Virus record (IMG/VR): IMGVR_UViG_2541047898_000011
Strand: one strand, 5' to 3'
DNA from: a virus
Taxonomy: Duplodnaviria > Heunggongvirae > Uroviricota > Caudoviricetes
DNA: 12,185 nucleotides
Each line of letters starts with the position of its first letter. Position 1 is the first letter of the stretch. The position numbers and the translations under genes were made by a program. Below, piece after piece: positions 1-1,012 of the stretch. The notes below the pieces were generated by a model. That model worked only from the letters and a program-made list of their open reading frames with translations. It had not been told where the DNA came from and did no database searches.

Positions 1-540
1 ATGAATCCGTTTAACGCCATTACTTTTGCTGCATTGTGCGGGCCTCTGGCTTGTCCTGCCGCTATGGCGCAGGAGTTCATCATCCAGCCAGCCCCTGTGA
101 TTGCTAAACCTTTTGAGTACTCTCCTTCTGTTGAGGAATTCTCACGCAGAATGGAAGAGGGTAAGGAGATCTTGCAAAAGTTAACAATTGCAGCAGATGA
201 CTACTATATCTGTTTGATTGATCTTAATAGCCAAGATGCTCGCGAGTTTGTTTCCAAAAACGGGACAGATACGACAGAGGCATGCGAAATGTTCCTGCGT
301 GCTTTTGAAGAAGAAGTGAAGCGTACAATTGAATCGCCTCTGCCTGAATTTATCAGGTCAGAACTGAAGGTTTACTGGCGTCATATTGCTAAAGCTCGCT
401 CATCTGTCACTCGCCTTAACAATTACATAAAGAGCATATTTAAAGAAACTGTTACTTTTAGCGGGCGCGCGGATCTTGCTGGAATTGCAGCACTAGCTAG
501 TCACACATCAAATAAGCTAAAATCGATGCAATTTCACTAA
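1..540 (+). CDS. Hypothetical protein, upstream partner of the YafO-like gene; may be 5'-incomplete since the ORF begins at base 1
   Basis: ORF track 179 aa; stop 16 bp before the next gene on the same strand; hydrophobic N-terminus; no family recognised by eye. Confidence 0.4.
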   Translation: MNPFNAITFAALCGPLACPAAMAQEFIIQPAPVIAKPFEYSPSVEEFSRRMEEGKEILQKLTIAADDYYICLIDLNSQDAREFVSKNGTDTTEACEMFLRAFEEEVKRTIESPLPEFIRSELKVYWRHIAKARSSVTRLNNYIKSIFKETVTFSGRADLAGIAALASHTSNKLKSMQFH

Positions 541-556
541 CCGATAGCGGACGACC

Positions 557-991
557 ATGCATCTAGAAGTCTCTATTAATCCAGAAACTAGAGCTGAATT
601 TTTTGATGAAGTTTTTCTCAAATTCCCGGAGCTAGAGTCTTCTATCATTGATGATTTCAAGAGATACAAAGCAACCGGTGAGCTTCCGCATTATTTCGGT
701 AGGGACGTTGCGTATACTCAGCCCTATGGTGCTTTTCGGGCTGGGTTGATGCATATCCATCTTTGTCTACCGCCAAACAAGTTTCCCGAGAAACTTCCAC
801 AACCGGATAGGGTCTGCAAGAAAGGTGATCCTGATAATGATGCTTGTCTTGTGTATGTCCAAGGTGAGCTTTATGAGAATAAATATTCACTCATTGCTAT
901 TATGTATCCCGATGCACATGAAAAAGCAAGAAAACATGATGTGATGAGCTATCTGGCGCGAATTGCCCAGAATTATAAAGATGAAAACTAA
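557..991 (+). CDS. YafO-family toxin-like protein (ribosome-dependent mRNA interferase family)
   Basis: 144 aa; motifs F.RYK..GELP.YFGRD..Y, MHIHL, LVYVQG, LIAI.YPD.H.KAR match my recollection of E. coli YafO (FISYKRDGVLPDTFGRD, HIHL, LVYCQG, LIAILKPEPHKLAR); weak SD. Confidence 0.55.
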   Translation: MHLEVSINPETRAEFFDEVFLKFPELESSIIDDFKRYKATGELPHYFGRDVAYTQPYGAFRAGLMHIHLCLPPNKFPEKLPQPDRVCKKGDPDNDACLVYVQGELYENKYSLIAIMYPDAHEKARKHDVMSYLARIAQNYKDEN

Positions 992-1012
992 CCCGCCGAA
1001 GCGGGTTTTTTG
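991..1012 (+). terminator. Rho-independent terminator after the plus-strand two-gene operon
   Basis: acccgc-cgaa-gcgggt hairpin followed by tttttt directly after the stop codon at 989-991. Confidence 0.6.

Follow-up and report, generated by a model that had tools for sequence, protein, structure and literature searches.

The locus raises the question of what holds a YafO-type toxin in check when the gene upstream of it is not yafN, and of what the two genes do together for the prophage that carries them. The pair lies at the start of a 12,185-nucleotide stretch of viral DNA (IMG/VR record IMGVR_UViG_2541047898_000011), hereafter the window. A preliminary description of this DNA proposed that the pair may form a toxin-antitoxin or abortive-infection module in which the antitoxin or regulator is new. 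With some reservation, we favor the reading that the cassette is a type II-style toxin-antitoxin moron, in which a YafO-family mRNase is joined to a dedicated neutralizer of a new family. The layout of the cassette, in window coordinates, is as follows.

1 to 540, plus strand: ORF1, the candidate antitoxin or partner gene; 179 aa, with its ATG at window base 1; phrog_8416 family.
1 to 99, plus strand: Sec-leader-like peptide of ORF1, codons 1–33, MNPFNAITFAALCGPLACPAAMA/QEFIIQPAPV; here and below, the slash marks a putative signal peptidase site, in this case after residue 23.
130 to 438, plus strand: helical bundle core, ORF1 residues 44–146, with helices 44–74, 77–87, 90–110, and 116–146.
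448 to 537, plus strand: conserved C-terminal tail, ORF1 residues 150–179, F-x-S-x-ID-x3-L-x2-LA-x2-TT-x-K-x2-S-x2-FH-COOH.
541 to 556, plus strand: ORF1–ORF2 spacer of 16 nt, without a strong Shine-Dalgarno sequence.
557 to 991, plus strand: ORF2, a putative mRNA endoribonuclease toxin; 144 aa, YafO family, RelE/HigB (BECR) fold.
990 to 1012, both strands: bidirectional intrinsic terminator, with a hairpin that overlaps the ORF2 stop codon.

The two reading frames and a clean intrinsic terminator are found where the preliminary description had placed them. The terminator stem, AACCCGC-cgaa-GCGGGTT at 990–1007, has 7 bp, five of them G-C pairs, and a 4-nt loop, and is followed by a T run. It scores on either strand, so that it also ends the convergent PrtN-family gene at 1018–1317. 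The DNA upstream of the window was read from E. coli UPEC 26-1 (locus L001, in which position 8001 is window base 1). There, a sigma-70-type promoter, TTGACC-17-TAGACT, is located 82 to 54 nt 5′ of the ORF1 ATG, just outside the window. With its own promoter and terminator, the ORF1–ORF2 cassette is thus a complete transcription unit, which agrees with the earlier claim of a separately terminated operon running opposite to the prophage early-left genes. The translation signals count in favor of the toxin-antitoxin reading: ORF1 has an ATG and a strong GAGGT Shine-Dalgarno sequence, 5–9 nt before the ATG in L001; the ribosome-binding site of the toxin gene, by contrast, is weak, and three close relatives use GTG as the start codon of the homologous toxin. 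Comparison of E. coli with Enterobacter shows that both genes are under purifying selection, with a pN of 0.235 versus a pS of 0.697 for ORF1 and a pN of 0.107 versus a pS of 0.816 for ORF2.

A palindrome, AATAGC-taag-GCTATT, extends from −45 to −30 of ORF1 (L001 7956–7971). At 10 of 12 related loci, a palindrome with arms of at least 5 bp is located downstream of the −10 element and upstream of the ribosome-binding site, against 2.8 loci expected from a shuffle test; the interval (54 to 20 nt before the ORF1-family start) was picked after seeing the data, and the loci are not wholly independent of one another. E. coli and Gilliamella have the half-sites ATAGC/GCTAT, and symmetric variants are seen elsewhere (GATAAC/GTTATC and TAAGC/GCTTA). 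The palindrome could serve as an operator for autoregulation, of the kind known from type II systems, or equally be a hairpin in the 5′ UTR.

The downstream gene is clearly of the YafO type. ORF2 matches the Pfam family YafO_toxin (PF13957) with an E-value of 1.9e-21 and 76.5 bits (cutoff 25) over profile positions 1–100 of 101, and it is 36% identical to K-12 YafO over 117 aa (E-value 2e-19). The YafO-type motif set noted in the preliminary description is borne out by the alignment of the two proteins, in which FGRD, HIHL, R85, LVY-QG, and P-x2-H-x2-AR correspond. These positions are invariant or nearly so across 32 subfamily members, and the His, Arg, and Tyr residues common to ORF2 and K-12 YafO, which are candidate active-site residues, are invariant. 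A confident structure model of ORF2 has the RelE/HigB (BECR) fold, in agreement with the placement of PF_YafO among the BECR-fold mRNase families, with the gene order antitoxin–toxin (PMC11980606). A sequence search found no solved structure among the homologues. Against the NCBIfam equivalog NF007377, ORF2 scores 75.8 bits, below the cutoff of 153 that marks orthology to K-12 YafO. It follows that ORF2 belongs to a separate YafO subfamily rather than being an orthologue, and that the activity of K-12 YafO is not simply transferable to it. One property is counted against a toxin-antitoxin system: many ribosome-binding toxins are basic, whereas ORF2 has a pI of 5.7, that is, acidic to neutral. 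Some ORF2 homologues (P0049, P0051, P0053, and P0064, from Photorhabdus among others) are shortened to 108–115 aa, which would fit a decay of the toxin gene in certain lineages.

Our reading is strengthened by the constancy of the pair. In all 12 loci examined, an ORF1 relative lies 3–20 nt upstream of a member of this YafO subfamily, in the same gene order. The loci are those of E. coli, Phytobacter, Enterobacter, two Pantoea, Yersinia, Photorhabdus, Gilliamella, phage HK639, two P. aeruginosa phages, and the Klebsiella phage-plasmid pJN2-26. A genome scan with an ORF1 profile found four further genera, each with a YafO-like gene 4–16 nt downstream. Starting in reverse from distant ORF2 homologues, the adjacent upstream gene was a divergent ORF1 homologue every time, as in Photorhabdus, Gilliamella, and Yersinia. 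The HK639 partner matches the ORF1 family HMM with an E-value of 1e-46; the upstream ORF1 homologues of P. aeruginosa phages YMC11/02/R656 and D14L have E-values of 4e-15 and 2e-18, and that of pJN2-26 has an E-value of 8e-11.

Antitoxins usually diverge faster than toxins, and at 11 of the 12 loci it is the partner that has changed more, with the widest difference in Gilliamella (21% identity for the partner versus 55% for the toxin); in Phytobacter, partner and toxin are about equally diverged (76% versus 74%). The genes on either side differ between loci and are unrelated. The pair is found beside att in lambdoid prophages, in siphovirus and myovirus tail modules (once by ParDE), on the plain chromosome, and on phage-plasmids about 110 kb in size; since the contexts differ, the pair moves as a unit. 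Judged from these sequences, the pairing and co-divergence are probably the signature of a mobile toxin-antitoxin cassette, and their recurrence in loci of distant hosts strengthens the earlier proposal of a toxin-antitoxin or abortive-infection module with a new partner, up to the point taken up below for the ORF1 N-terminus. In PLSDB, ORF1 of the phage-plasmid clade is carried by 317 plasmids of about 110 kb, most of them non-mobilizable, and an addiction role on these elements is plausible. At the Yersinia locus, a ParD–ParE pair and an extra parD (L011 1328–2176) lie directly upstream of the ORF1/YafO pair in a myovirus tail module, and this site among the tail genes seems to be a hot spot for toxin-antitoxin modules.

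ORF1 itself has a single database family match, phrog_8416 (E-value 5e-86), for which the function is unknown, and has no match in Pfam, NCBIfam, PADLOC, or PDB; PADLOC-DB v2 has no family for either ORF1 or ORF2 at E-values up to 1. The partner is indeed distinct from YafN, as had been suspected, with no significant alignment of ORF1 to YafN and no Phd/YefM match in Pfam. The family is small: a word-seeded search gave 22 clusters, and a profile search of 1.84 billion proteins gave 23 representatives. The AlphaFold2 model of ORF1 (pLDDT 80) has a helix at residues 6–24, a disordered linker at 25–43, a four-helix bundle at 44–146, and, after a low-confidence linker, a separate C-terminal helix at 159–175. 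No DNA-binding fold and no known antitoxin fold is recognizable in it. The C-terminal tail motif is kept from E. coli to the phage-plasmid and HK639 clades, which makes the tail a candidate toxin-binding element. One phage GenBank record names ORF1 ‘YafM antitoxin’, without work to support the label. Literature searches on ‘YafM antitoxin’, on the ORF1–YafO pairing, and on exported antitoxins returned annotation labels only and no functional work.

We propose that the cassette would work as follows. ORF1 would be made first, from the strong ribosome-binding site, and would serve as the dedicated neutralizer of ORF2, its family standing in for the Phd/YefM-type YafN. Neutralization would be through the helical core and the conserved C-terminal tail. 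ORF2, when released, would cleave mRNA and so arrest translation. The cassette would stabilize its carrier, whether prophage or phage-plasmid, and/or kill or arrest cells infected by other phages. The organization is that of type II systems: the cassette is bicistronic, the partner is upstream, the spacing is tight, and the two genes are inherited as a unit at each of the 12 loci.

What the toxin-antitoxin model leaves unexplained is the N-terminus of ORF1. In the family alignment, residues 1–33, MNPFNAITFAALCGPLAQPAAMAQEFIxQPAPV, are the most conserved ORF1 segment in the E. coli-to-Serratia clade. Codons 1–33 have 7–15 synonymous versus 1–4 non-synonymous changes, and pN is 0.048 in these codons versus 0.277 in the remainder of ORF1. 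Because synonymous changes are common here, the constraint acts on the protein, and a DNA or RNA constraint as the cause of the conservation is ruled out. Residues 1–24 are uncharged, P19 (−5) and A23 (−1) are invariant, and the motif [AVTG][ML]A/ after residue 23 recurs across the ORF1 clades. By heuristic criteria, the h-region has a Kyte-Doolittle mean of 2.29 over 8 aa, A21 and A23 are small, and P19 is a helix breaker. The corresponding means for the MalE and PelB leaders are 2.25 and 2.52, which puts ORF1 within the range of textbook leaders, and the ORF1 c-region, LAQPAAMA/Q, is similar to that of the PelB leader, AAQPAMA/.

The n-region of the E. coli clade contains no K or R. Distant clades have the same leader layout together with K/R n-regions, as in Photorhabdus (MKMNPLLKH...), P0080 (MKTTLSICAAALSMALSSPNVLA/RE), and Pseudomonas phage R656 (MARTK...). 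In the phage-plasmid clade, ORF1 starts with M[RH]LENCLEDMSVISNALATVTSNASRFS, followed by a basic linker, and a Kyte-Doolittle mean of 1.39 makes this segment too polar for a leader. The N-terminal module of ORF1 thus differs from clade to clade. In most clades, it looks, by these heuristics, like a cleavable Sec leader for export. Such a segment is unexpected in an antitoxin and does not fit a simple cytoplasmic one, and this limits the support for the preliminary reading. An efficiently exported ORF1 could not hold a cytoplasmic toxin, which counts against the toxin-antitoxin model. On the other side, the absence of a leader from the phage-plasmid clade suggests that, in at least one clade, the conserved core of helices and the tail work in the cytoplasm. 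In the toxin-antitoxin model, the leader-like segment may control the stability or location of ORF1.

The alternative that survives best, which we nevertheless consider rather unlikely, is that the cassette is an export-linked sensor–effector. ORF1 would be a true Sec substrate and control of the toxin would depend on export, in one of two ways. Either a short-lived cytoplasmic precursor neutralizes ORF2 and is drained by secretion, or precursor that piles up when Sec or the proton-motive force fails activates ORF2. The cassette would be triggered by a phage infection that disturbs host translation, secretion, or the membrane. The leader architecture argues for this alternative, with its invariant P and A residues, its uncharged stretch of 24 residues, and the K/R n-regions of distant clades. 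So does the degree of constraint on codons 1–33, higher than in any other part of ORF1, which suggests a role beyond mere targeting, and the moron location in a prophage fits a role in defense. However, the assignment of the leader is heuristic, the phage-plasmid clade remains paired with the toxin although it has no leader, the literature searches gave no precedent, and a soluble periplasmic protein has no obvious signaling route to a cytoplasmic toxin.

Export may also be considered as a source of antitoxin lability, an idea that we regard as quite improbable. Here, ORF1 would be cleared from the cytoplasm by Sec export or by capture by a Sec chaperone, instead of by proteolysis, and the leader-like peptide would be the lability device. 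The toxin would be freed when ORF1 synthesis stops or when secretion or the proton-motive force is disturbed, as would occur when the element is lost or another phage infects the cell. If true, this would be a new principle for arming toxin-antitoxin and abortive-infection modules.

The genomic setting is that of a prophage integrated in the 5′ end of dusA, the gene for a tRNA-dihydrouridine synthase. In L001 7581–8000, the first 217 nt (7581–7797) are the zur-dusA intergenic region and the dusA 5′ end of prophage-free strains, and attL is about 204 nt upstream of ORF1. The preliminary description had remarked on the position of the pair, at a site where one would look for an integrase. This is no anomaly: the integrase is at the far end of the prophage (PhiR40_1 40960–42057), so none is missing or replaced. 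The cassette as an integrase replacement is accordingly ruled out by the position of the integrase and the insertion in dusA. The integrase and the xis-like gene mark opposite ends of the prophage, and the gene order in the circular phage is int, attP, ORF1, ORF2, and the convergent xis-like PrtN gene. Of 5,426 complete E. coli genomes, about 50 carry, at 99% identity or more, a 1.3 kb segment that includes the cassette, as do the phage records PhiR40_1 and PhiR55_1. In E. coli SX12, the segment occurs in the chromosome as well as in a distinct record of 55.6 kb (NZ_CP142783.1, NZ_CP142787.1); the latter copy may represent prophage DNA that has been excised or is replicating. The cassette has the features of a moron, namely its own promoter and terminator, an orientation against the neighboring phage genes, and insertion sites that vary among phages.

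Several neighbors deserve mention in their own right. The product of the gene at 1018–1317 (minus strand), which converges on the cassette terminator, is a PrtN-family protein (PF11112, E-value 4e-24). Since the homologue in phage mEp460 is annotated as an excisionase, this product is probably a phage Xis and not a pyocin activator. Just inside attL, at L001 7874–7893, is a perfect 10-bp direct repeat, two copies of TCTATTCATA, that may be an arm-type integrase-binding site. Farther into the window, a gene for a protein with a PerC-like transcriptional activator domain (9995–10489, plus strand; PF06069) overlaps the reading frame of a phage Dam methylase (10456–11142, plus strand; PF05869). 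In the late-early region, directly before a RusA-like gene, a gene at 11139–11465 (plus strand) encodes a 108-aa protein with a LexA DNA-binding domain only (PF01726, E-value 3e-19). Without a peptidase domain, its product would be a non-cleavable LexA mimic.

The moron setting gives some weight to a different explanation, in which there is no toxin system at all. ORF1 would be a periplasmic protein of lysogenic conversion or superinfection exclusion, ORF2 would be a non-lethal regulator that, for example, tunes specific mRNAs, and the two would merely be co-inherited. The leader-like N-terminus would fit such a role, the cassette occupies classic moron slots by lipoprotein and other exclusion-type genes, and neither protein has a match in PADLOC. 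Yet the pairing at every locus across bacterial orders, with such short gaps and with co-divergence, argues for an obligate functional coupling; the invariance of the His, Arg, and Tyr residues that ORF2 has in common with K-12 YafO likewise counts against this explanation, and the clade without a leader keeps the pairing. We therefore find this explanation hard to credit. Still weaker, and in our judgment very improbable, is the idea that ORF2 is neutralized by another agent (an RNA antitoxin, a small peptide that escaped annotation, or a YafN-like antitoxin of the host) with ORF1 as an accessory third component: ORF1 is unusually large and unlike any known antitoxin, and three-component defense systems derived from toxin-antitoxin modules exist (PMC9519451), but the neighboring genes differ at every locus, the 16-nt spacer and the terminator overlapping the toxin stop codon leave no room for a further gene, and an RNA antitoxin or type III repeats were rejected, with no Rfam match above noise and no tandem repeat array. 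Both of these explanations are made less likely by how strictly the genes are paired, by the conservation of the candidate active-site residues, and by the absence of space for a further gene.

We return to the toxin-antitoxin reading and to what it would mean. The toxin family and the type of cassette are already known, and automatic annotation names the toxin. What is new is a conserved partner family without known relatives, in phages of three bacterial orders, and its leader-like N-terminus. The partner is found in temperate phages of Enterobacterales, Orbales, and Pseudomonas and on hundreds of Klebsiella phage-plasmids. If ORF1 is an antitoxin, its family is a new one among antitoxins, with no known relatives by fold, and the annotation of these loci should be changed to that of complete modules. 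Should the leader-like N-terminus prove functional, a toxin that targets the ribosome would be tied to the secretion pathway through this module, a link for which the literature searched holds no example.

Among known systems, the closest is YafN–YafO of E. coli K-12, in the dinB-yafN-yafO-yafP operon. The toxins are of the same family, with the sequence identity and the FGRD, HIHL, LVY-QG, and P-x2-H-x2-AR motifs described above, and in both cases the partner is encoded upstream, at a short distance. In contrast, the partner here is a helical protein of 179 aa with a leader-like N-terminus, whereas K-12 YafN is a 97-aa protein of the Phd/YefM type; and the cassette here has its own promoter and terminator on a prophage, whereas the K-12 pair is part of the LexA-controlled dinB operon. 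The similarity to HigB2–HigA2 of Vibrio cholerae and other RelE/HigB-fold modules is more remote, with a sequence identity of only 13% for ORF2. HigBA has the toxin gene first and an HTH antitoxin, whereas ORF1 has neither an HTH nor similarity to HigA.

The TAC systems (HigBA-SecB-like and CmdTAC) offer a different kind of comparison. In these, an aggregation-prone extension of the antitoxin makes it dependent on a SecB-like chaperone (PMC5105189; PMC9519451). The likeness is in the tie between a RelE-superfamily toxin and export-chaperone biology, since the leader-like segment could make ORF1 a client of a Sec chaperone. Unlike TAC, the cassette has no third, chaperone gene, and there is no sequence similarity. 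Moreover, the hydrophobic extension of ORF1 is N-terminal and resembles a cleavable leader, whereas the chaperone-addiction segment of TAC antitoxins is C-terminal.

Finally, surveys of P. aeruginosa prophages list YafO among lone toxins (PMC10449497, PMC12066637), with vB_PaeS-D14L as one example (PMC10449497). These ‘orphan’ YafO proteins belong to the same subfamily as ORF2, with 48–52% identity, and the gene upstream of them, of 167–180 aa, is an ORF1-family homologue. It follows that the P. aeruginosa toxins are not orphans.
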